From Vulcanimicrobiaceae bacterium (lineage in GTDB: Bacteria > Vulcanimicrobiota > Vulcanimicrobiia > Vulcanimicrobiales > Vulcanimicrobiaceae), in assembly GCA_046262595.1 (NCBI GenBank), contig JBHEMM010000013.1:27662-41804 (forward strand): a DNA stretch of 14,143 bases, given 5' to 3'. The first letter of the stretch is position 1. Every line of letters begins with the position of its first letter. Both the position numbers and the translations under genes were made by a program. The notes below the pieces were generated by a model that was given only the letters and a program-made list of their open reading frames with translations, made no database searches and had not been told where the DNA came from. Shown here piece by piece: positions 1 to 11,023 of this stretch.

Positions 1-231
1 ATGGCGGCGATGAGCGGATATATGAATCAGACACCGATCGATCCTGCCGCAGGCGGCTCCGCATATTATACCTACACGAACACCAGCTCCGGCGGGGTGT
101 ATAGTTACAACATCGACTGCCCGGGCGTCCACGACCCGAACACGCTGCAAGCGATCACCGGCGGCGCAACGACCACCAACACGCACATAAAGTACGACAG
201 CCAGCAGGGCTTCGCGACGAGCTCTTCCTGA
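1..231 (+). CDS. C-terminal fragment of a probable type IV pilin/pseudopilin (5' truncated by window edge)
   Basis: Open frame from base 1 to TGA 229-231; Ser/Thr/Gly/Tyr-rich with 'YMNQTPIDP', resembling the GspG/pilin 'YL..xPxDP' motif; C-ending codons dominate; sits directly upstream of prepilin peptidase and pilMNOPQ. The N-terminal methylation motif is not visible. Confidence 0.6.
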   Translation: MAAMSGYMNQTPIDPAAGGSAYYTYTNTSSGGVYSYNIDCPGVHDPNTLQAITGGATTTNTHIKYDSQQGFATSSS

Positions 232-881
232 TGATTGACTTCGGTTCGGGCGCGATGCTTGCGGTTGCGCAACAGCAGCCTGCGGCTTATGGACTCGTCT
301 TTCTCGCGGGACTTGCCGGCAGCGCCGGCCCATGCGTCGCTCCCCGGTTTGTTGCGGCCGCGGGTTTGGCGGCAGGGACTTCACCGCTGCATGCTCGCAC
401 TCGCGTTGCGGCGATGATCGCCGGACTCGTGGCCGCGTACGCCTGCTTTGGATGCTTTGCGTCGTTGATCGGCGTTGCTGCGGCATTTTCTCCGGCCATT
501 TACGCGCTTGCCGGCGCCGCCATGCTCTTTTGTGGAATTCGCACGCTCGTAAGGGAACCGGTTCATGGTTCCCCACGGTGCTCGGCGGCGCGTCCGGGCG
601 GCGCATTTTTCTTAGGTGCGTCCTTTGCGCTGGTCGTCTCTCCGTGCTGCACGCCGGCGGTGCTGGGAATTCTCGCGTATGCCTCGGCATCCGGCGCCCA
701 GCGCGCGCCGCTGCTTTTGGCGTGCTATGCGCTGGGCCATGCCGTTCCGTTAGGGTTTGCCGCTATGGGCAGCGCGGCGCTTCGCGGAGTGTTCGCGCGC
801 GCGGACATCGGCCGCGGCATCGACGTGCTTGGCGCCGCTCTTTCCGTGGCGCTCGGCATGTACTACATGGTAATGACATGA
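231..881 (+). CDS. ccdA: CcdA/DsbD-type transmembrane thiol-disulfide interchange protein (cytochrome c biogenesis family)
   Basis: About six hydrophobic segments with the two conserved Pro-Cys motifs: 'FLAGLAGSAGPCVAP' and 'FFLGASFALVVSPCCTPAVLGIL', plus 'YALGHAVP'. ATG overlaps the upstream TGA (TGATG). Confidence 0.85.
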   Translation: MIDFGSGAMLAVAQQQPAAYGLVFLAGLAGSAGPCVAPRFVAAAGLAAGTSPLHARTRVAAMIAGLVAAYACFGCFASLIGVAAAFSPAIYALAGAAMLFCGIRTLVREPVHGSPRCSAARPGGAFFLGASFALVVSPCCTPAVLGILAYASASGAQRAPLLLACYALGHAVPLGFAAMGSAALRGVFARADIGRGIDVLGAALSVALGMYYMVMT

Positions 882-1414
882 GGGAACCGTTCGGCAGGCC
901 GCGGCGCTGGATCGTCGTGCTTACCGCGCTTGTCCTTGCGCTGCTGTTTTTTCATGCCGCGCTCGCGCGCTCGCTGGTGGTGCGCGGCGACGACTTTCTT
1001 TATCGCAGCGATCGAGCACAGGCAATCGCGCATTACAAACGAGCGCTGCTGTTCGACGGCGGCTCCGAAGACGCTTCTGACCGGTTGATTTTTGCCGCGC
1101 TCATGGAGCGTACGCCGGCGACCCTGCGCGAGGGAGTCCGCGAGGCCGACCGGTTTCTTCGCCGTCATCCTGCGAGTGTTACCGTGCGAGCCGACCGCGC
1201 GTTATGCTATCTTATAACGCGCCGCTACGATCGCGCTTATGCCGATTTCGAACGTGTCGCCGCGCAGACGCACCAGGCACGTGATTATGCCTTTGCGGGA
1301 TGGGCTGCGGCGCATGCGGGCGATCGCCGGGCGGCGCGGGCGCTCTGGGAACGGGCCCTGCAGATCGAGCCGCACTTTGCGCCGGCCGTCAACGCATTGT
1401 CGAGGCGTTCGTGA
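878..1414 (+). CDS. Membrane-anchored tetratricopeptide-repeat (TPR) protein
   Basis: True start is ATG 878 (ATGA overlap with ccdA stop) inside the 332..1414 ORF. Basic N-terminus plus TM helix (WIVVLTALVLALLFF); TPR-like units 'AIAHYKRALLFD', 'RALCYLITRRYDRAYADFERV', 'ARALWERALQIEPHFAPA'. Confidence 0.8.
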   Translation: MREPFGRPRRWIVVLTALVLALLFFHAALARSLVVRGDDFLYRSDRAQAIAHYKRALLFDGGSEDASDRLIFAALMERTPATLREGVREADRFLRRHPASVTVRADRALCYLITRRYDRAYADFERVAAQTHQARDYAFAGWAAAHAGDRRAARALWERALQIEPHFAPAVNALSRRS

Positions 1415-2025
1415 TTGGTTTAGCCGCAGCGATTGTTTTCTCTGTTACGGCGCTCGCTGCAGCGGCGTGTGCTGCAACAGCCGTCTCCGAACGCTGCGGG
1501 GTAACGGTACGCCTTTTCGCGCCGGTTTCGCTAACGGTTCTGATCGGGTCCGCCGCGCTCGCATCTTATGTTGCAGCAGGCAAATTGCCTGCTGCAGCGG
1601 CGGTGGTCGTTATTGCCTGCGCGTGCTGCGCCGTGTGCGCAGTGTGCGACGCGCAGACGGGCTATGTGTTCGACGCCGTTACCCTGCCCGCGTTAGGATC
1701 GATCGTGCTTTTATCTTCCTTACAGAACGCTGCAACGCCGGCCTTGACCGGAATGCTGCTGGCTGCCGGGGCGCTCTTCGTGCTGTTTGCGGCTTCGCAC
1801 GGCCGGGCGCTCGGCTTCGGCGATGTAAAATTGGCTGCCGTCCTCGGCGCGGCGATGGGTTCTGCAGAGGCGCTGCCGGCAATTGGACTGGCATTCATTG
1901 CCGGCGGTGCACACGCAGCGTATCTGTTGCTATCAAGAAAGGCCGGACGCGGCGATGCCATGCCGTTCGCGCCATACCTTTCGGGCGCATTGTTCTGCAT
2001 GTTGCTCTCAAGAACCACGGCATGA
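1411..2025 (+). CDS. pilD: Prepilin peptidase, family A24 (PilD/ComC-like, peptidase domain only)
   Basis: GTG 1411 overlaps the TPR gene stop (GTGA). Catalytic aspartate motifs 'CDAQTGYVFD' and 'LGFGDVKLAAVLG', C-terminal 'MPFAPYL'; polytopic membrane protein. Confidence 0.9.
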   Translation: MIGLAAAIVFSVTALAAAACAATAVSERCGVTVRLFAPVSLTVLIGSAALASYVAAGKLPAAAAVVVIACACCAVCAVCDAQTGYVFDAVTLPALGSIVLLSSLQNAATPALTGMLLAAGALFVLFAASHGRALGFGDVKLAAVLGAAMGSAEALPAIGLAFIAGGAHAAYLLLSRKAGRGDAMPFAPYLSGALFCMLLSRTTA

Positions 2026-2984
2026 AGTGCGCGCCGCTGCCGCTTGGAATTGACATCGGCGCCGCACGCGTGCGCGTCGCGCACGCTCATCAGACGCCTC
2101 AAGGCCGCCGCGTGCGCGCGGTTGCCGTGCGTACGATTGCCCCGGGTGCGTCTTCATCGGGAAACGTTGCGGACGCCGAGTATGTCGGTGCGCTCATTGA
2201 AGATGCTCTCGCGGAATTGAATACGAAGGAGCGCCGCTGCGTCTGCGCGCTCGGAGAACCCGACGGCATACTGCGTTCCATCCAGTTACCTGCGATGAAG
2301 GCGCACGAACGCGAGCGCGCGTCGCGCTACGAGGCGTCACGCTACGTGTCGTATCCGATGAGCGGTGCGGTCGTGCGGCTACACCGCTCGCCGGTGCCTG
2401 GCCGGTGGATGCTCGGCATCGCACGGGCCGAAGCGGTCCAGTCGCGTCTTGCCGCGTTACGGCAAGCGAACGTGCGGCCCGTGGCGATCGATCACGAATC
2501 ATGCGTCTTGGCGCGTGCTTTGCCCGGTTTTGACGCGATCGTCGACATCGGCCTCGACCGCACGACCCTGCATGCGATAAAGGACGGCGTACCGTTCTCA
2601 TTTGTTGCGTCCATGGGAGGCGCCTCAGTGACACGCGCAATTGAAGAAGAGCTCGGCCTGCAGCCGGGAGCGGCGGAAAAGCGCAAGCGCATCTTGGGAA
2701 CGGCCGGAGCGGGGGAGCACGCGCGGTCGGCGCTGGTCGGCGAGATCGCAAAGATGCTGGTTGCCGCGCGCGCCGTTACCGCTGTTGGCCGAATTGCGCT
2801 CTCGGGAAACGGCGCGCGACTACCGGGCGTAGCGCGCGATCTCGAAATATCGTGCGCCGTACAGGTAGAACTGCCGGTGAGTTTCGCGTTGCGCGCAGCG
2901 GCCTATCCGGAAGACGTGCTACGATCCGCAGCGCCCGATTGGAATCTGGCTGCGGGCCTCATCCTGTGGCAGCGGAACGCGTGA
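2022..2984 (+). CDS. pilM: Type IV pilus assembly protein PilM (actin/FtsA-like ATP-binding fold)
   Basis: ATG 2022 (ATGA overlap) inside the 1239..2984 ORF. Motifs 'LGIDIG', 'IVDIGLDRTTL', 'GGASVTRAI...AEKRKR', 'LSGNGARLPG', 'AAGL'; first gene of an MNOPQ-like series. Confidence 0.9.
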   Translation: MKCAPLPLGIDIGAARVRVAHAHQTPQGRRVRAVAVRTIAPGASSSGNVADAEYVGALIEDALAELNTKERRCVCALGEPDGILRSIQLPAMKAHERERASRYEASRYVSYPMSGAVVRLHRSPVPGRWMLGIARAEAVQSRLAALRQANVRPVAIDHESCVLARALPGFDAIVDIGLDRTTLHAIKDGVPFSFVASMGGASVTRAIEEELGLQPGAAEKRKRILGTAGAGEHARSALVGEIAKMLVAARAVTAVGRIALSGNGARLPGVARDLEISCAVQVELPVSFALRAAAYPEDVLRSAAPDWNLAAGLILWQRNA

Positions 2985-3538
2985 ACGGATTCGATTTCCT
3001 ACACTCTCCCTTGCCTGAATGGCTGCTTCGTGCGCAACGTGTGCGCGTTTGCACGGACGTGCAACTCGCAGCGCTCGCCTTCGCCGCCGCCTTGGCCATC
3101 GCGTGCGGAGCGGGCGCGATCGAACGGCACCGCTGCGCGCGAGCATTTGTACTCGAGTACGCCTACGCGCAGCGCGAGCGGCAAAGCGGGGCGCGGCTCG
3201 CCGCCGGCAACCTCCTTTACCGCCGTGCGGTTGAGCTCGTGCGGCTGGACGGGCTTGCTCAAAAGATCGTTTCCTCAGGAGATGACCACGTGCGCCGTAT
3301 TGCCGCCGTCGCTAACGCGGTTCCCCGCCGCACGTGGTTAACGGCTATTCGGGGCGAGAGCACCGGTCTTTCGCTTGAGGGCGGCGCGAGCGATTTTGGC
3401 AGGCTCGGCACGTTAATGCGCAGTTTCATGCAATCCGACGCACTGCACAACCCGTCGATCAAAGACGTAACGCTCGTATCGGACCGCCCGCATTCCAACA
3501 CCGTAAGATACGAGCTGCACGTGGATGCCGTACGATGA
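2981..3538 (+). CDS. pilN: PilN-domain protein
   Basis: GTG 2981 (GTGA overlap). Single TM helix, coiled stretch, then the PilN-like 'VPRRTWLTAIRGESTGLSLEGGA...LGTLMRSF...NPSIKDV...VRYELHV'; position after pilM. Confidence 0.8.
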   Translation: MNGFDFLHSPLPEWLLRAQRVRVCTDVQLAALAFAAALAIACGAGAIERHRCARAFVLEYAYAQRERQSGARLAAGNLLYRRAVELVRLDGLAQKIVSSGDDHVRRIAAVANAVPRRTWLTAIRGESTGLSLEGGASDFGRLGTLMRSFMQSDALHNPSIKDVTLVSDRPHSNTVRYELHVDAVR

Positions 3539-4137
3539 AACGACGATCGCCCGAGGCCGATGCGCGTACAGCCTGCTTCGGACTGCTTGTCTGTGCCGGG
3601 GTCGTGCTGTTTGCCGGCGGCGGCGGACTCATCGCGCATTACGAACGTGCGATCGCCGCGGCGCAGTCGCATTCCGATGTCCTGTACGCGCAAACCCTTT
3701 CCAACGATCGCGTGAGCACGCGCGCTGCCGCGTTTACCGGCCTCGCGAGGAGCGCCTCGCGCGACCTGGCAACGCTTGGCCTGCAAACGAGCCAGGCCGG
3801 CGCAACCGCGGAATTTATTTCAACGCTGCGTGCAGCCTCGCGTACATTCCGCGCGCGCGTGGTTTCAGTAGAGTTTGAGGCGCCGCCGCTGAGTGCGGCG
3901 CAAAGCGGTCCTTTCATGCGCATGTCGGTCGTTGTAAAAGTTCGCGGCCATTTTGCAGACCTCATGCGCTTTGTGTCAGCACTACCGCGGCAGCATGCAC
4001 TGATAGGCGTTGACGGTCTTGCGTTGACATTGGCCGGTCCAGCGGCGTCGAATGGGCGCCCGCCGCTGCTCGAAGCCGTCATGCATGCGACCGTGTACCG
4101 CCTCGTTCGTCCTTTGCAAGGAGCATGGAATGCATGA
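3535..4137 (+). CDS. pilO: PilO/GspM-like alignment-complex protein
   Basis: ATGA overlap; N-terminal TM helix; PilO-like 'MSVVVKVRGHFADLMRFVSALPRQHALIGVDGLAL...ATVY'; position after pilN. Confidence 0.8.
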   Translation: MKRRSPEADARTACFGLLVCAGVVLFAGGGGLIAHYERAIAAAQSHSDVLYAQTLSNDRVSTRAAAFTGLARSASRDLATLGLQTSQAGATAEFISTLRAASRTFRARVVSVEFEAPPLSAAQSGPFMRMSVVVKVRGHFADLMRFVSALPRQHALIGVDGLALTLAGPAASNGRPPLLEAVMHATVYRLVRPLQGAWNA

Positions 4138-4558
4138 AAACCGCCGCATCGTTTTAGCATCGGCCTTGGCGGTCTGCGCGATCTCGATGTGCTTGCTGCC
4201 GCTTGCGGCGCGCTCATCGCTCGAAATGTCCGAGGGCACCGCGGCCTCTGCCGGCCGCTTTGAGCATGCGCCGGTGCGGCTGCGTCAAACCACAACGCCC
4301 CCGCTTGTCTTGCGCGATCCGTTTATCGCTGAGGGTGAAGGCCCGGCGCATGACCTGCATGCGGCAATGCCGTCGGCCGTGTTTGTGCGCGCCGTGATTA
4401 CCGGATCTTCGCCGCGCGCGCTCATCGAGGACGGCGGGAGAATTCGCATCGTGCAGCCGGGCGATGCGGTCGCGGGCTCGACGGTGCGGTCCCTAGGCGT
4501 CAAGGGCATCGTGCTTGAGAACGGCATTCGTCTGCCGCTTGCAGCTCAGTCGCTGTGA
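4130..4558 (+). CDS. PilP/GspC-like periplasmic pilus protein
   Basis: AAGGAG (4118-4123) 6 nt before ATG 4130; N-terminal hydrophobic segment, 'RDPF' motif and beta domain 'VRAVITGSSPRALIEDGGRIRIVQPGDAVAGSTVRSL' typical of PilP/GspC HR domains; between pilO and secretin. Confidence 0.7.
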   Translation: MHENRRIVLASALAVCAISMCLLPLAARSSLEMSEGTAASAGRFEHAPVRLRQTTTPPLVLRDPFIAEGEGPAHDLHAAMPSAVFVRAVITGSSPRALIEDGGRIRIVQPGDAVAGSTVRSLGVKGIVLENGIRLPLAAQSL

Positions 4559-5928
4559 AAGCCGCAGGCGCTCTCGCACTGGCGCTGCTCTTGTGCGGCA
4601 TCGCCGCACGACCGCCCGGCGCCGCAATCAGCATCGACGTTCGTGATGCGGAACTGACGGACGTGATTGCGTTGTTGGCCGCCGAGTCCGGGGCAAACAT
4701 CGTTGCCGATGCATCGCTGGTTCCTCAGCGTATCACTCTGCATCTGCATGGGGTCACATTCGGAGATGCACTTGACGTGCTCGTGCAGTCGCGAAGCCTT
4801 CAAATCAGGCGTATAGGCGGCGTGCTTCTTATCGGCACTGCGGAGTCCATGAGCCGGCGATACGGCGATACAAATGACGCACAAGGCAGTAAAACGGCGG
4901 TTCTTGCGCTCGCTCGCGCGCAACCGGACGATGCCGCGAAGGAACTTGCGGCCGGTTTGCCGCCCGGAACGGTCCTTATTCCGGACAAGCGGACGGCCAG
5001 TATCATTGTCAGCGGCAGTGCGCAAACGATCGCGCGCGCGCGCGTGCTGCTGACTGCGCTCGATGCGCCGAACCCCGAAACCGGCACGAACGGCGCCCAC
5101 GTTTACCGGCTACGGTACGCCAAGCCGCTGGCGATTGCGGCGAACCTCAAAGGTGTTTTGCCCGACGGGAGTTTTGTGGCGGACGACGCCCAAAATGCGA
5201 TCGTCGTGAGCGGGAACGACGACGTGCAGCGTTCTGCGCGGCAATTCATAGCAAGCATGGACGTCGAAAGCGCGCAGGTGCTGTTCGAAGTGCGTGTTGC
5301 GGACGTGATTCCGGATTTGGAGACAAGGAATGTCGGCATCGAGTTCGGCGGCTATGACTTCTCGGGGCAAACCCTGAGCGGCGCAGCCACGTACGCTTTT
5401 GCAAAAAGCTCGCTCGCGATCAATGCAAAGTTGAACGCACTCGTGAGCACCGGACGCGCGCAAATCCTGGCAACGCCGAAACTGGTGAGCTTGAATAATA
5501 AGGAAGCGGATCTCTTGATCGGGCAGACATACCCGGTGATCTATTACGACGCGCGGGTAGGCGGCCAGCAAGTGCAGTTCGTTGACGTTGGGGTAAAATT
5601 GCGCCTAACCGCGACGATTGGCTCGGAAGGCAGCGTCACCGCTGAAATGCATCCGGAATACAGCGCCATCCAGTCGTTCGTCGGGGGATATCCCGTCATT
5701 GCAAACCGCAAAATCGATTCGACGCTGCGTGTTCGTGACAACGAAACCATCGTGCTTGGCGGTCTGCTGAGCGACATCGACTCACAGACCGTCACGAAGG
5801 TCCCGTGGCTTGCCGACATCCCCGTGTTCGGAAAAATCTTTCAAAACCGCCAGAGCACGCGCGAACGCGACGAAGTGGTGTTTTTCATCACGCCGCATAT
5901 CATGCCGGCAGCGGCCGCGCAGCCGTAA
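4555..5928 (+). CDS. pilQ: Outer-membrane secretin (PilQ/GspD family)
   Basis: GTG start (GTGA overlap), signal peptide, N0 domain 'ISIDVRDAELTDVIALLA...NIV', two secretin-N repeats, C-domain motifs 'QVLFEVRV', 'ILATPKLVSLNNKEA', 'ETIVLGGL', 'KVPWLADIPVFGKIF', 'FFITPHI'. Confidence 0.95.
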   Translation: MKAAGALALALLLCGIAARPPGAAISIDVRDAELTDVIALLAAESGANIVADASLVPQRITLHLHGVTFGDALDVLVQSRSLQIRRIGGVLLIGTAESMSRRYGDTNDAQGSKTAVLALARAQPDDAAKELAAGLPPGTVLIPDKRTASIIVSGSAQTIARARVLLTALDAPNPETGTNGAHVYRLRYAKPLAIAANLKGVLPDGSFVADDAQNAIVVSGNDDVQRSARQFIASMDVESAQVLFEVRVADVIPDLETRNVGIEFGGYDFSGQTLSGAATYAFAKSSLAINAKLNALVSTGRAQILATPKLVSLNNKEADLLIGQTYPVIYYDARVGGQQVQFVDVGVKLRLTATIGSEGSVTAEMHPEYSAIQSFVGGYPVIANRKIDSTLRVRDNETIVLGGLLSDIDSQTVTKVPWLADIPVFGKIFQNRQSTRERDEVVFFITPHIMPAAAAQP

Positions 5929-5995
5929 AGCGGCCGGGCTCCAAGCGGGGCAGGACGGGAGCTCCATGCGCAGGCGGTGAACTAGCGCTTCCTAG

Positions 5996-7549
5996 ATGCT
6001 TTGGATGCTCTCCGTCGCTCTGAATACCGTCATTGCAGCGGCCTTCGTCATGATTGCCTATACGGCCGCGCGCGGGCTGAGCCGCAGCGGTCAACTCACC
6101 TCAAATATGCTCGGCGTCGCCACAGCGGCGATGTTCGCCTCATGCGCCATCAGTCACGAGACGCACGCCGTTCATATGCTGCTGCCGGCGCTCGGCCTGG
6201 AGCACGAAGCAGGCATGGCGATGCGCAGGGCCATCGACTGGCACCTCGATGGCGCCGACTCCCTGACTGCCGCTATCGCCTTATGGTATTGGACGCAGCG
6301 GCCGAAGTTCAACGCGCTCCTGGATGGCGGCCAACTGTTCGCCGATCTGCATCAACGGCTCGAGGTAACCGGACGGGCGCTTGCCGAGAAAGGCCGCATC
6401 GCCGACGCGCTTCAGCGAGCGCTCGCGCCAAAAGATCTGCCGTTCAACGATAAGCTGTCCTTTCATGCGGCGTATTTGCCGGCTGACGAGGAGGCGCAAA
6501 TCGGCGGCGACTGGTACGACGTGTTCGCGTTGCCGGCCAACCGCATCGGGTTCATGGTCGGCGACGTTACGGGCCACGGCCTGGAAGCCGCCGCTATTAC
6601 GAGCCGCGTCCGAGAGTCGATCATTGCTGCAGCGTTCGCGAACGACGACCCCAGTATTGTGCTGCAGCGCGTCAATGACATTTGGTTTCTGCGCGCGGCC
6701 CCTATCGTCACCGCGACGTACGGCGTCGTCGATCTCGACACGCTCCACGTACGCTACGCTACGGCCGGCCATCCTCCGCCCGTTTTTTGGTCACGCGCCG
6801 AGGGCGTGCGCTTCGCTCCGCACGACGGCCTTCCGCTTGGCGTCGAGCGCGATGCGGCGTTCCCGACGGCGTCTGTGCAGATGAGTGCCAATTCGGTGTT
6901 CGTGCTCTACACGGACGGCGTCACGGAACACAACCGCACGCCGGTAGACGGCGAGCGGCAGTTGCTTGCGGCGGTGCGAGCGTCGTGCGAGCAGAACCGT
7001 CGGATGCTCGCGCGCGACATTCTCCACGGGGTCCTCGGGCGTTCGCGCACGCGCGATGACGCCGCCGTGCTCGCGATAAAGTTTGTCGGCGAGCCGACGC
7101 TCGTGCGCGGGAGGGACTCTCTGCGCTGGACGTTCGACGTCGCCGATCCCGAGGCCGCAAACAGGCTGCGGACACGCGTCATGATCGCCGTAGCTGAATA
7201 CGGCGCAAGCGGCTGCGACATGCCGGCAACCGAGCTCGTGTTGGGCGAGCTGCTTGCAAACGTCGTCCGGCATACGCCCGGGCCGATCGTCATCGAGCTC
7301 AGCGGCCGATCGCCGGCATACGTGCTGAGCGTAACCGATGCCGGCCCGGGTTTTGCACTCTCGCGCGATCTGCCCGAAGACCCGCTGAGCGAGCACGGGC
7401 GCGGAATGTTTCTCATTCGTGCGCTCGCGGACGACGTCGAAGTGACGCGAGCGCCACAGGGCGGCTCAACAGTGCGCGTCGTCCTGCCCGCGGCACGCAT
7501 GCACGCCTTCGATGGAAGCGCCGGCCCCGCTGTCGCGATGCACCCGTAA
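5996..7549 (+). CDS. Membrane sensor fused to PP2C/SpoIIE (RsbU-like) phosphatase and RsbW-like HATPase_c kinase domain
   Basis: SpoIIE motifs 'GGDWYDV', 'GDVTGHG', 'AGHPPP', 'LYTDGVTE', 'DDAAVL'; HATPase motifs 'ELLANVVRH', 'DAGPGF', 'GRGMFLI', 'GSTVRV'; N-terminal ~105 aa with three hydrophobic helices and a CxxxH motif. An in-frame TAG immediately precedes ATG 5996. Confidence 0.92.
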   Translation: MLWMLSVALNTVIAAAFVMIAYTAARGLSRSGQLTSNMLGVATAAMFASCAISHETHAVHMLLPALGLEHEAGMAMRRAIDWHLDGADSLTAAIALWYWTQRPKFNALLDGGQLFADLHQRLEVTGRALAEKGRIADALQRALAPKDLPFNDKLSFHAAYLPADEEAQIGGDWYDVFALPANRIGFMVGDVTGHGLEAAAITSRVRESIIAAAFANDDPSIVLQRVNDIWFLRAAPIVTATYGVVDLDTLHVRYATAGHPPPVFWSRAEGVRFAPHDGLPLGVERDAAFPTASVQMSANSVFVLYTDGVTEHNRTPVDGERQLLAAVRASCEQNRRMLARDILHGVLGRSRTRDDAAVLAIKFVGEPTLVRGRDSLRWTFDVADPEAANRLRTRVMIAVAEYGASGCDMPATELVLGELLANVVRHTPGPIVIELSGRSPAYVLSVTDAGPGFALSRDLPEDPLSEHGRGMFLIRALADDVEVTRAPQGGSTVRVVLPAARMHAFDGSAGPAVAMHP

Positions 7550-7798
7550 AGCGCGCGCCGCAACCGTAGCGAAGACGCGCGTCCAACGCACGGCATCTGC
7601 TACATTCTCAAACGCTCCGGGTTGGTGATAGAGCAGGCGCCAATGCGACGAAGTACTGTTTCATCACGCCGCAGGTCATGTATCCGGGCCGACGGGCTCG
7701 ATGATTCGTACCGCCGGGGGTCCGCACTTGAAGTGTGGAGGCGCTTGCCGGCCGCGCTTTTGTTGCTGTCGACGTGTCCTCTGCGTTTTGAGGCCGCT

Positions 7799-8182
7799 CT
7801 AGCGATCGTCAAACGCTTTTTGCGCAGCGTACACTTCGGCGATATGATCGTTTGCCCAGCGCGCCAGCTCGCCGATCGGCCCGCAGAGCGTGCGGCCCAG
7901 CGGCGTAAGCGCATACTCGACGCGCGGCGGCACCTGGGGAAAAATCGTGCGCTGCACGAGCCCGTCTCGCTCAAGGTCGCGCAGCGTTTGGGTAAGCATC
8001 TTTTGCGAGATTCCGACGATCGCGCGTTTGAGTTCATTGAACCGCATCACCCGCGCCTGAGCGAGCAGGCCGACGATCAGCACCGTCCACTTGTCGGCCA
8101 CGCGGCCGAGCACCGTACGCATCGGACATGCGCCCAAGTACATCTCTGCGTCGGTGGGGATCGGGAGCGCGACGGTTTCCAC
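7799..8182 (-). CDS. HxlR/YodB-family winged-helix transcriptional regulator
   Basis: 'ACPMRTVLGRVADKWTVLIV', 'RFNELKRAIVGISQKMLTQTLRDLERDGLVQR', 'VPPRVEYALTPLG'. Likely start GTG at 8182 preceded by AAGGAGCTGAGG on the minus strand (ORF track extends to 8263). Confidence 0.93.
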   Translation of the reverse strand: METVALPIPTDAEMYLGACPMRTVLGRVADKWTVLIVGLLAQARVMRFNELKRAIVGISQKMLTQTLRDLERDGLVQRTIFPQVPPRVEYALTPLGRTLCGPIGELARWANDHIAEVYAAQKAFDDR

Positions 8183-8238
8183 GGAGTGCCTCAGCTCCTT
8201 TCGCGTGCGTGCTTGTGAATCATTGCCTAGTATGAAAT

Positions 8239-8264
8239 AGTTACTTACATAACGGTAGCACACT
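8239..8264. promoter_or_regulatory. Candidate operator for the HxlR-family regulator in the divergent promoter region
   Basis: AT-rich island containing the imperfect palindrome AGT-N4-TAC-N6-GTA-N4-ACT (agttacttacataacggtagcacact) between the divergent regulator and yceI. Confidence 0.5.
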
Positions 8265-8297
8265 TGCCGCCGGCCAGCAACCGCTCAAGGAGATCCT

Positions 8298-8846
8298 ATG
8301 GAAACCCAAACCGCGCTAAAAACGGTCTACGCCATCGACCCGAGTCACTCAATGGTCGAGTTCAGCGTCCGGCACCTGATGATCAGCAAAGTCAGGGGGC
8401 GTTTCACGGCGTTTCAGGGCAGCATCGCCGTCCCGGCCGGCAGCGACGTCCCGAGCGAGCTCGAGGTCACCATCGAGGCAAAATCGATCGACACGCACGA
8501 AGCGCAGCGCGACACGCACTTGCGTTCCGCCGACTTTTTCCATGCCGAGCAATTCCCGAGCCTCACGTTCAAAAGTACGGGCATCAAGCGCACAAGCGGC
8601 GGCTCGTTCGAAGTCACCGGTAACCTCACCATGCACGGCGTGAAGAAGTCCGTCACGTTCGATGCGGAATTTGAAGGACGCGGTAACGACCCATGGGGCA
8701 ATCAGCGCGTCGCATACAGCGCGCACACGAAGCTCGATCGCAAAGATTTCCGCTTGAACTGGAATGCCGCACTCGAAGCGGGCGGCGTGATGGTCAGCGA
8801 TGAGGTGAAGATCGAACTGAACGTCGAGGCGAGCGCAGCGAAGTAA
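8298..8846 (+). CDS. yceI: YceI-family polyisoprenoid/quinone-binding protein (no signal peptide)
   Basis: 'IDPSHSMVEFSVRHLMISKVRGRF', 'SIDT...RDTHLRSADFF', 'GNLTMHGVKK', 'DPWG', 'DRKDF.LNWN...GGVMVSDEVKI'; AAGGAG at 8287-8292. Confidence 0.95.
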   Translation: METQTALKTVYAIDPSHSMVEFSVRHLMISKVRGRFTAFQGSIAVPAGSDVPSELEVTIEAKSIDTHEAQRDTHLRSADFFHAEQFPSLTFKSTGIKRTSGGSFEVTGNLTMHGVKKSVTFDAEFEGRGNDPWGNQRVAYSAHTKLDRKDFRLNWNAALEAGGVMVSDEVKIELNVEASAAK

Positions 8847-8850
8847 ACGC

Positions 8851-9636
8851 ATGAGCGGCACCGCACAACCGGCAATCTTTTTCGGGCACGGCAATCCGAT
8901 GAATGCCATCGCGGCGAACCCGTATGCGCCGCGCTGGAACGCGATCGGCGCCGCGCTCGAAAAACCGAAAGCGGTGCTCGCGATTTCCGCGCATTGGTAC
9001 GTCGAACAGAGCGCGGTGACGGCCGTTGCCGCGCCGCGCACGATCCACGACTTTGGCGGTTTTCCCCGCGAGCTGTTCGACGTGCGTTATCCCGCGCCCG
9101 GCGAACCGCAGCTCGCGCGCCGCGTGCGCGAATTGCTCGCGCCGGCCGCATCAATTGCGTTGGACGAGCAATGGGGCCTGGATCATGGCACGTGGTCGGT
9201 GCTCATGCACGTCTTTCCGCGTGCCGACGTGCCGGTTGTGCAATTGAGCATCGATGAAACGCAGCCGCCGCGCTATCACTACGAACTGGGCAGACGTTTG
9301 GCGCCGCTGCGTGAGGAAGGCGTTCTTCTTGTGGGCAGCGGCAACGTCGTGCACAACTTGCACGCCTTCGCCTGGGGGCGCCATTCCGTCGAGCCTTTCG
9401 ATTGGGCGCAGCGCTTCGAACAGCGCTTGCGCGAACGAATCTTAGCCGGCGACCACGATCCGCTGGTCGATTACGAATCGCTGGGGCGCGATGCCGTGCT
9501 TTCGGCGCCCACTCCCGACCATTATCTGCCGCTGCTCTACGTCATTGGCGCGCGCCTGGCGAACGACACGGCGAGCTTTCCCGTGCAGGGTGTGGACGGC
9601 GGATCGATTTCGATGCTCGCCGTCGACCTGCGGTAG
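8851..9636 (+). CDS. ygiD: 4,5-DOPA extradiol dioxygenase (YgiD/LigB family)
   Basis: 'PAIFFGHGNPMNA', 'ISAHW', 'TIHDFGGFP', 'WGLDHGTW', 'PVVQLS', 'GSGNVVHNL', 'PTPDHYLPLLY'. Confidence 0.95.
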   Translation: MSGTAQPAIFFGHGNPMNAIAANPYAPRWNAIGAALEKPKAVLAISAHWYVEQSAVTAVAAPRTIHDFGGFPRELFDVRYPAPGEPQLARRVRELLAPAASIALDEQWGLDHGTWSVLMHVFPRADVPVVQLSIDETQPPRYHYELGRRLAPLREEGVLLVGSGNVVHNLHAFAWGRHSVEPFDWAQRFEQRLRERILAGDHDPLVDYESLGRDAVLSAPTPDHYLPLLYVIGARLANDTASFPVQGVDGGSISMLAVDLR

Positions 9637-9642
9637 TTCCCC

Positions 9643-9789
9643 CTATGCCTCGCCGCGGATCGCGCGGACCATTTCGCCGCGTTCAACGGAGGCGAGCTGC
9701 ATCTCGCGGTCTTGTTCGCACGCCGAGCAAAGGGAACCGGCGCGCACTTGGCGGCCGCAATCGGGGCAATGCGATTCGAGTTGCATCAT
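9643..9789 (-). CDS. Small (48 aa) four-cysteine zinc-ribbon-like protein
   Basis: MMQLESHCPDCGRQVRAGSLCSACEQDREMQLASVERGEMVRAIRGEA; CxxC-x9-CxxC; AAAGGAG 9 nt upstream of ATG 9789 on the minus strand; fills the gap between ygiD and aroC without overlap. Confidence 0.7.
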   Translation of the reverse strand: MMQLESHCPDCGRQVRAGSLCSACEQDREMQLASVERGEMVRAIRGEA

Positions 9790-9877
9790 AGATGCTCGCT
9801 CCTTTCGGTAAACGGAGCCTCCTTTATACCCGGTTTGCGACCAGGGTATCCGCCGCCGGGCGCTTGAAGCGTAGGTG

Positions 9878-11023
9878 GTGTTCCGATATCTGACCGCAGG
9901 CGAATCGCACGGCCCGGCACTGGCCGGCATCCTAGATGGCATTCCGGCGAGGCTTCGCTTGGACGTCGGACAGATCAACATTGAATTGAGCAAACGCCAA
10001 GGCGGTTACGGCCGCGGCGCACGGATGCAAATCGAGAAGGATGCAATCGAGTTCCTCGCCGGCGTCCGCGGCAGCGAAACGCTCGGTTCACCCATCGCCG
10101 TCGCGATTCGCAACCGCGATTTTGAAAACGTGCGCGCGCTCATGGACCCGGTCAGCGGAAGCGGCAAGCCGCTGACCAATCCGCGGCCCGGCCACGCCGA
10201 TTATGCAGGTGCGCTCAAATACCGGCAGCGTGACCTGCGCAACGTGCTCGAACGCGCGAGCGCGCGCGAAACGGCAATGCGCGTCGCGCTCGGGGCGATT
10301 TGCGCGCAATTCTTGCAGGCGCTGGGCATCCGGACGCAATCGTACGTGCATCGGATCGGATCGGTCGAAGCGCCGGTGCTCGACACCATCGATGCGCAGG
10401 CCGTCGAAGAAAGCGACGTGCGCTGCCCCGACACGCACGCATCGTCGGCGATGATCGGCGCAATCGACGAAGCAAAGGCCGCCGGCGACACGCTCGGCGG
10501 TCAGTACGTCATCGTGGTCGATGGCGTACCGGCGGGCGTCGGGAGCAACCGCCAACCCGACACGCGGCTCGACGGCGTGCTGGCCGGCGCGATCATGGCG
10601 ATGCAGACCGTCAAAGCCGTCGAAGTTGGCCTAGGCGCGGACGCGGCTTCGCGTCCGGGCTCCGCGGCGCACGACGAGTTTGCAATGAGCGGCGGCGCGG
10701 TCGTGCGCACCACCAACCGCGCGGGCGGTATCGAAGGCGGCATGAGCAACGGCCAGCGCATCACCTTACGGGTGAGCGTCAAGCCGATCCCAACGTTGAT
10801 GAAAGCGTTGCCCTCGGTGAATCTGCACGAGAAAACGGGCGCGCCCGCATCGATCGTCCGCAGCGACGTGTGCGTGGTTCCGGCCGCCGCCGTCGTGGGA
10901 GAAGCGATGGTGCGGCTCGCGTTGATGGCGCCGGTCTTGGAAAAATACGGCGGCGACTCGATGGAGGAAACGCTCGACAATCTGCAGCGCAGCACCGGCG
11001 CCGCGCGCGAGCTGTTCCGCTGA
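9878..11023 (+). CDS. aroC: Chorismate synthase
   Basis: 'FRYLTAGESHG', 'RQGGYGRGARM', 'PRPGHAD', 'ERASARETA', 'NRAGGIEGGMSNG', 'KPIPTL', 'RSDVC'. Start is GTG 9878 or 9875. Confidence 0.98.
   Translation: MFRYLTAGESHGPALAGILDGIPARLRLDVGQINIELSKRQGGYGRGARMQIEKDAIEFLAGVRGSETLGSPIAVAIRNRDFENVRALMDPVSGSGKPLTNPRPGHADYAGALKYRQRDLRNVLERASARETAMRVALGAICAQFLQALGIRTQSYVHRIGSVEAPVLDTIDAQAVEESDVRCPDTHASSAMIGAIDEAKAAGDTLGGQYVIVVDGVPAGVGSNRQPDTRLDGVLAGAIMAMQTVKAVEVGLGADAASRPGSAAHDEFAMSGGAVVRTTNRAGGIEGGMSNGQRITLRVSVKPIPTLMKALPSVNLHEKTGAPASIVRSDVCVVPAAAVVGEAMVRLALMAPVLEKYGGDSMEETLDNLQRSTGAARELFR

Follow-up and report, generated by a model that had tools for sequence, protein, structure and literature searches.

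The locus described here raises the question of whether an open reading frame that ends in a phosphatase and an anti-sigma kinase-like domain begins with a relative of the domain by which the plant receptor ETR1 binds ethylene and, if so, what such a sensor might detect. The open reading frame lies between pilQ and hxlR in the window, by which we mean the whole 14,143-nucleotide stretch of DNA analysed, and comprises the following features.

5996..7549, forward strand: the whole open reading frame (517 aa, ATG start), a divergent ETR1_N-type membrane sensor followed by a linker, a SpoIIE/PP2C phosphatase and an RsbW-type ATPase.
5999..6085, forward strand: predicted helix I (residues 2-30), with Asn10 (ETR1 Asp25), Phe17 (Tyr32), Ile20 (Ile35) and Ala21 (Pro36).
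6107..6193, forward strand: predicted helix II (residues 38-66), with Phe47 (Ile62), Cys50 (Cys65), His54 (His69), His57 (Asn72) and His60.
6143..6166, forward strand: the C-x3-H-x2-H motif (Cys50, His54, His57), a predicted metal site on the grounds of conservation and of the joint loss of the Cys and His57.
6194..6238, forward strand: a variable insertion (residues 67-81), likely extracytoplasmic, with a short helix at 70-79.
6239..6325, forward strand: predicted helix III (residues 82-110), with Trp82, His83, Asp88 (Lys91 position), Thr91 (Thr94), Tyr98 and Arg102.
6326..6430, forward strand: the linker to the phosphatase, a putative coiled coil in which residues 113-132 (132 being the end of the modelled part) are helical.
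6503..7084, forward strand: the SpoIIE/RsbU-type PP2C phosphatase, with intact GGDWYD, GDVTGHG, YTDG and RDDAA motifs.
7142..7480, forward strand: the RsbW-type (HATPase_c_2) domain, with N box (ELLANV), G1 (DAGPG) and G2 (GRGMFL).

The preliminary description had named three hydrophobic helices, peptides quoted from them and the positions of Cys50 (TGC, 6143-6145) and His54 (CAC, 6155-6157), and all were present as stated, with three long helices among those predicted by AlphaFold2 (residues 2-30, 38-66, 70-79, 82-110 and 113-132; pLDDT 94.7). The codons of the other residues discussed here are Asn10 (6023-6025), Phe17 (6044-6046), His57 (6164-6166), His60 (6173-6175), His83 (6242-6244) and Asp88 (6257-6259). 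Pfam matches placed SpoIIE (PF07228) at residues 181-363 (E 4.7e-41, 141.3 bits against a cut-off of 25) and HATPase_c_2 at residues 383-495 (E 1.8e-15, 57.5 bits against a cut-off of 27.4). Four close full-length homologues, 63-67% identical in the sensor part and one of them named as Candidatus Velthaea (a genus of Vulcanimicrobiota), have the same architecture as the 517-aa frame, which was found in P0002-P0005, P0007 and L056. In base composition the sensor part (GC 0.63; GC3 0.78) does not stand out from the neighbouring genes and so gives no sign of recent transfer, and a promoter scan for the gene found none.

The sensor was placed in a family using a profile of five close sequences searched against 1.84 billion representatives (E <= 0.001). 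In this way 247 clusters, formed at 50% identity, were assigned to the branch and the best 150 of them retrieved, and a second search gave 50 matches, 40 of them new. Most members carry no taxon and the named ones are mostly actinobacterial (among the matches listed, Acidimicrobiia, Propionibacteriaceae and several Actinoplanes species); the family is a widespread soil-bacterial branch. Among 52 members scanned for domains, chosen mostly by length, the output was a histidine kinase in 19, GGDEF in 24 (many with EAL, one with HD), SpoIIE in one and PAS only in four, with four lacking any further domain, and since the sensor precedes such varied outputs we regard it as a mobile sensor domain. 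Only four of these 52 passed the Pfam ETR1_N cut-off and 48 fell under it, so that most members are likely unannotated. No account of this branch appeared among the literature matches listed, although published surveys and their supplements may list phosphatase outputs. Within the phylum, the family profile detected the divergent sensor in none of 400 other genomes (seven candidates scored in each), a shallow profile likewise matched none of 300, and DNA-level searches with the locus gave no match in genome_contigs, none in plasmids or phages and one in metagenomes.

Several members are unusual in their own right. In Actinoplanes (P0208, P0210, P0211, P0221-P0224) the sensor stands on PAS plus CckA-like hybrid kinases and has extra outer-loop histidines. 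A set of short proteins of 150-260 aa (P0190, P0006, P0010 and others) consists of the sensor and one short helix resembling the HisKA_3 dimerisation helix, in which the apparent phospho-histidine position is Asn in 26/85 and His in 8/85, 50/85 falling outside the pattern; these are possible kinase-less partner subunits. P0060 (426 aa) is a tandem duplication of sensor and short helix in which copy 1 lacks His57 and copy 2 has C-x3-H-x2-H, and may represent an asymmetric dimer within one chain.

The N-terminal domain is genuinely homologous to ETR1_N, though distantly, at the level of the superfamily. The sole Pfam match for residues 1-110 was ETR1_N (PF25487; E 0.0062), at 17.2 bits and hence under the cut-off of 27. 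When the deep family profile was aligned with 14 canonical domains (hhalign, profile-profile), the probability was 84.8% and the E value 6.6e-6 over 63 gap-free columns; a shallow profile of five sequences gave 5.4% and was uninformative. With the family profile, seven of 19 fetched canonical loci outranked the best unrelated ORF among 17,637 ORFs, whilst the other 12 stayed at background, which counts against the ETR1-like reading that we favour below. AzoEtr1 scored 9.7 bits with this profile, a thin margin over the maximum of 9.1 in 2000 shuffles. The top match in the Atlas scored 0.93 (215/256 features shared) and its cluster was 35% ETR1_N; all ten of the best family-bearing Atlas matches concurred on ETR1_N and the nearest Atlas cluster was mostly Actinomycetota.

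The register of helices I and II was unique, a single one of 15 offsets scoring positive (+28.5; runner-up -20.7), and gave N10=D25, F17=Y32, I20=I35, A21=P36, C50=C65 and H54=H69. The 40-residue N10-C50 spacing, equal to D25-C65, and the placing of F17 at Y32 that had been proposed by eye are those of this positive-scoring offset. For helix III the proposed alignment of D88 with K91 and of the LTA motif was ambiguous from sequence (-4.2, against -7.0 and -8.4 at other offsets) and gained its support from covariation, computed on 174 sequences: the strongest diagonal between helices I and III contains the pairs N10-D88 (z 5.0) and I13-T91 (z 4.0). Published ETR1 couplings include the pairs 25-91, 72-91 and 25-72 (Table S1 of PMC10266040), and when 81 such pairs were mapped onto the family, the pairing of K91 with D88 fitted best (mean z 0.96, against <=0.50 elsewhere), whilst for helices I-II the optimum was offset 0 (mean z 0.91; next 0.64). 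Covariation and the ETR1 contact map together settle the register as D88=K91, and the alternative register D88=Ser98, suggested by two alignments in which D88 was paired with the second Thr-Ala motif, was disfavoured by covariation. The homology claimed at the outset accordingly stands on the family profile, the unique helix I-II register and the ETR1 contact map. Sequence searches of the PDB turned up no solved ethylene-binding domain and, with the protein as query, gave nothing at E <= 0.001, and fold searches of the PDB and BFVD gave no match at E <= 0.001 and generic bundles only, the best being a GPCR at a VIA Z of 9.4, an ordinary value for helical bundles.

Homology of the scaffold leaves the pocket to be compared. 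Conservation was counted over 198 aligned domains with gaps excluded, and joint residues over the 174 rows left after 24 rows with >=25% gaps were dropped. The residues matching the ETR1 copper ligands Cys65 and His69 are nearly invariant (C50 in 189/196, H54 in 193/196), as had been expected of a genuine metal site in the preliminary description. The departures from ETR1 that it had noted also recur across the family, namely Asn at the D25 position (N10, 171/192), Asp at the K91 position (D88, 154/177) and the additional histidines H57 (178/196), H60 (138/196) and H83 (81/176). Position 17 is Tyr in 179/194 and Phe in 15, including this protein; I20 is found in 186/194, F47 in 190/196 and T91 in 126/176. 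Among the 174 rows a basic residue (Lys or Arg) never occurs at 88, nor does Pro at position 21 or Ile at position 47, and N10, C50, H54, H57 and D88 occur jointly in 126/174. In other words, the Asp25/Asn72/Lys91 network of ETR1 is replaced across the subfamily by Asn10/His57/Asp88, so that the Asp25-Lys91 polar bridge is absent, the acidic residue now stands in helix III and His57 follows one turn past His54. The spacing from His54 to Asp88 is 22-43 residues in the family against 19 from His to Lys in canonical bacterial domains. The divergence noted earlier is consequently real, though it belongs to the subfamily and not to this protein in particular, and the output of most members is a histidine kinase or GGDEF/EAL.

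The seven ETR1 residues used here as binding-critical are D25, Y32, I35, P36, I62, C65 and H69, Y32 being one that we take to belong to the set. Three of these are kept in the present protein (I, C and H), leaving four that differ, and four are kept in the family consensus, leaving three; the replacement of Ile62 by Phe47 had been overlooked in the preliminary description. By its defining residues the protein is thus predicted to fall outside the functional ethylene-receptor class. Seven residues are reported as needed for ethylene binding (PMC6682694, PMC11819568, PMC6586836), and the wider receptor literature was also drawn on (PMC9603746, PMC10452086). In the model reported for ETR1, Asp25 polarises His69 and bridges to Lys91, which explains nanomolar binding (PMC10266040). 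According to the same source, Asp25 is 93.55% conserved, with natural Asn25 variants (3.67%) working as low-affinity receptors; D25N remains a working receptor that releases ethylene ~100-fold faster and still mediates ethylene responses; K91M and K91A keep copper and bind ethylene at 6% and 1%; and D25N combined with K91A is ethylene-insensitive (PMC10266040). The D25N and P36A differences noted earlier are real but on their own do not exclude ethylene, since D25N exists as a natural low-affinity variant (PMC10266040), and P36A also occurs in 3/15 canonical domains.

Residue pairs offer a further view of the pocket, with the caveat that p values for co-occurrence are overstated because kin are not independent. 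N10 and D88 co-occur (138/152 against 10/19; coupling z 5.0), as do His60 and His83 (73/118 against 7/55; z 4.3), C50 and H57 are coupled (z 4.9), and His57 is lost in five of the seven Cys50-less members, themselves mutually 30-57% identical, against 11 of 167 that bear Cys50. Direct N10-H57 coupling was absent in the 174 sequences (z -0.7) and H57-D88 coupling weak (z 1.9), both of which count against our preferred explanation, as does the separation of Cys50 and His57 by seven residues, which is probably long for sharing one ion. A homodimer was predicted with a score of 0.74 (best control 0.00; runs agreeing in >=85% of contacts; pLDDT >=79), and this score reaches a mark attained by 20/30 solved homodimers and 1/23 single chains, a rough calibration given that the run had its own alignment and zinc; the zinc yielded no position for a metal. 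In the predicted dimer Cys50 contacts Cys50' at the axis and residues 57, 60, 83 and 88 lie within the interface.

As the copper ligands are kept whilst the pocket is rebuilt, a different small molecule or metal is likely sensed, or ethylene weakly. The explanation we favour, to which we give about an even chance, is that the protein works like ETR1, as a copper-cofactor membrane dimer signalling via helix III, with altered specificity. Cu(I) would be bound by Cys50 and His54, as by Cys65 and His69 of ETR1; the carboxylate polarising the metal-binding histidine would now lie on helix III (Asp88) instead of helix I; and His57 would join the site as third ligand or relay and so change ligand preference. 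Most likely the site would then respond to CO or another small molecule that binds Cu(I), or else to its own occupancy by copper. Occupancy of the site would shift helix III and the linker coiled coil and thereby set phosphatase dimerisation, upon which the phosphatase and kinase domains would alter phosphorylation of a STAS anti-anti-sigma factor, e.g. the RsbV of this genome, and switch a SigB-type stress response. Against this explanation stand also the ethylene responses that D25N is reported still to mediate in ETR1 (PMC10266040) and the lack of a match to the P-type ATPases (PF00122; copper suppliers of the CopA/RAN1 type) in this genome, which is 89.7% complete; PF00122 was present in 14/14 control genomes.

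The same residues can be read as those of a receptor still tuned to ethylene or another small alkene, with low affinity and fast release, in which Asp88 would polarise His54 and His57 would replace Lys91 as the positive partner. The retained Cys and His ligands, the prevalence in the family of the Tyr32 and Ile35 residues counted above, the reported natural Asn25 receptors (PMC10266040), the H54-D88 coupling (z 2.4) and the canonical ethylene domains found on the same output in relatives within the phylum all speak for it. We nevertheless consider it unlikely, as the differences at binding-critical positions include Pro36 and Ile62, found in none of 174 rows, and a non-basic residue at 91 is reported to nearly abolish ETR1 binding (PMC10266040). 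Slightly less probable again is that the protein senses metal ions or redox state and has no gas ligand, using Cu or Zn at an outer His57/His60/His83/Asp88 cluster or a Cys50-Cys50' redox pair; this draws on the H60-H83 covariation and on the modelled interface, in which these residues would lie and the two cysteines would touch, and is set against the far lower conservation of H60 and H83 than of C50 and H54, a lack of H60-C50 covariation (p 0.21) and the absence of copper-handling genes near the gene, with none in the window and none evident among the ORFs of L056. A domain that has degenerated to a membrane anchor or a module for dimerisation, its resemblance carrying no sensory meaning, is very improbable, for despite the sub-threshold Pfam score of the single protein and the absence of the Cys in 7/174, the buried Cys/His/His/Asp/Asn set is kept jointly by most of a diverse family and the domain precedes several different outputs.

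The partner-switching output proposed for the protein agrees with the intact catalytic motifs of its phosphatase and ATPase, including the metal-binding aspartate motifs of PP2C, and with a complete rsbV-rsbW-sigB/F/G operon on contig C1 of the same genome (L021, G000:C1:120247-123546), a candidate target of the genome's many phosphatases. The protein scored under the NCBIfam cut-offs for both SpoIIE and RsbW, the RsbW equivalog, a model of the stand-alone protein, giving 14.7 bits against a cut-off of 145. There are 17 SpoIIE matches with varied inputs and five STAS matches in the genome; several of the 17 SpoIIE proteins in these 2.4 Mb also bear an RsbW-type ATPase, their inputs, judged by eye, being GAF-, PAS-, receiver- or HAMP-like. 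In RsbU-type phosphatases a helical linker is reported to activate by coiled-coil dimerisation, with sensors swappable among phosphatases, kinases and cyclases (PMC12143880), and such a mechanism would fit the anatomy of the linker here.

The preliminary description had also contrasted the PP2C/anti-sigma wiring with the output of characterised receptors; this wiring does not mark the protein out. ETR1_N exceeds the Pfam cut-off in 19/301 genomes of the phylum, and six of the 19 fetched loci encode a canonical sensor fused to SpoIIE and an RsbW-type domain (L027:1444-2994, L033:1444-3024, L034:286-1845, L036:277-1851, L038:1447-2958 and L039:1444-3009). Their domain order is identical (504-527 aa as scanned), their sensors have all seven residues in four cases and P36A in two, and their phosphatases are 34-38% identical to that of the present protein. 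As the same wiring occurs under canonical sensors, the novelty lies in the rebuilt sensor. In a phosphatase tree that took in 10 of the 16 other SpoIIE proteins of the genome (six missed the motif filter), the phosphatases of seven divergent-sensor proteins formed their own clade (100/99), and one clade uniting them with the six canonical fusions, tested after the tree had been seen, was rejected (p-AU 0.0048). The seven sensors likewise formed one clade (SH-aLRT 98), nested in the divergent family and far from canonical domains, in a tree of 69 rows (55 divergent, partly a random subset) and few columns. Two independent grafts are the likeliest origin of the divergent and canonical fusions, the divergent sensor having likely come from a family of actinobacterial type and been joined to a phosphatase-kinase module that was already resident. 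No ethylene-domain/PP2C fusion was found among the literature matches listed, although published surveys may list phosphatase outputs; for the canonical fusions we predict ethylene-controlled partner switching. At a further locus (L037:1408-2151, genome G011) a canonical ethylene-binding domain lies in a frame that ends at 248 aa, with a tail resembling an out-of-frame phosphatase, and here a frameshift is likely.

The gene's surroundings vary among relatives. The pilQ-aroC interval (window 4555-11020) is a variable slot: pilQ lies within ~0.5 kb of aroC in 8/20 relatives (G036, G041, G055, G067, G071, G151, G168 and G305), the slot in close kin is filled by hxlR-yceI-dioxygenase or other genes, and the gene was found in none of six fetched stretches. 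Upstream lies an ordinary cluster (window 231-5928) encoding a DsbD-like membrane protein, a TPR protein, a prepilin peptidase and pilM-N-O-(P)-Q. A link to this type IV pilus operon, considered as SynEtr1 affects motility, was rejected given the variable slot and the different neighbours at L056.

We tentatively propose, at somewhat less than an even chance, that these proteins are a second, unnamed class of ETR1-type receptors, with a charge-inverted Asn/His/Asp network round a Cys/His/His copper site and a non-ethylene ligand, e.g. carbon monoxide. Such a class would number no fewer than 247 clusters from soil bacteria, with cultured Actinoplanes among its carriers, in which the presence of the sensor on hybrid kinases makes genetics feasible. 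If the proposal is right, it provides a natural experiment on how the ethylene-receptor scaffold sets ligand specificity. A branch with a concerted inversion of the network offers a ready test of the Asp25/His69/Lys91 model of ETR1 and is a candidate scaffold for binding a new ligand through copper. The canonical domains on partner-switching modules in six genomes, for their part, lead us to predict that ethylene governs a SigB-type response in the phylum.

Compared with known systems, the protein resembles Arabidopsis ETR1 in its three helices, gap-free helix I-II alignment, retained Cys65/His69 and Ile35, contact map and predicted homodimer, and differs from it in D25N, P36A, I62F, N72H, K91D and Y32F, in the insertion between helices II and III and in having no GAF/histidine kinase. 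AzoEtr1 of Azospirillum brasilense Sp7, whose sequence (L064, Sp7 plasmid) agrees with the published numbering D35/C75/H79/K98 (PMC11819568), and SynEtr1 of Synechocystis (Slr1212), known here from papers (PMC6682694), are bacterial N-terminal domains of the same superfamily but have all seven binding residues and a histidine kinase output. The cyanobacterial Asn25 receptor variants share Asn at the Asp25 position and are described as keeping the polar bond to Lys91, whereas here the Lys position is Asp and Asn72 is His (PMC10266040, PMC11971883). The output is like that of RsbU/SpoIIE phosphatases and RsbW kinases in its catalytic motifs and helical linker, and unlike it in joining phosphatase and kinase-like domain in one chain behind a membrane sensor.
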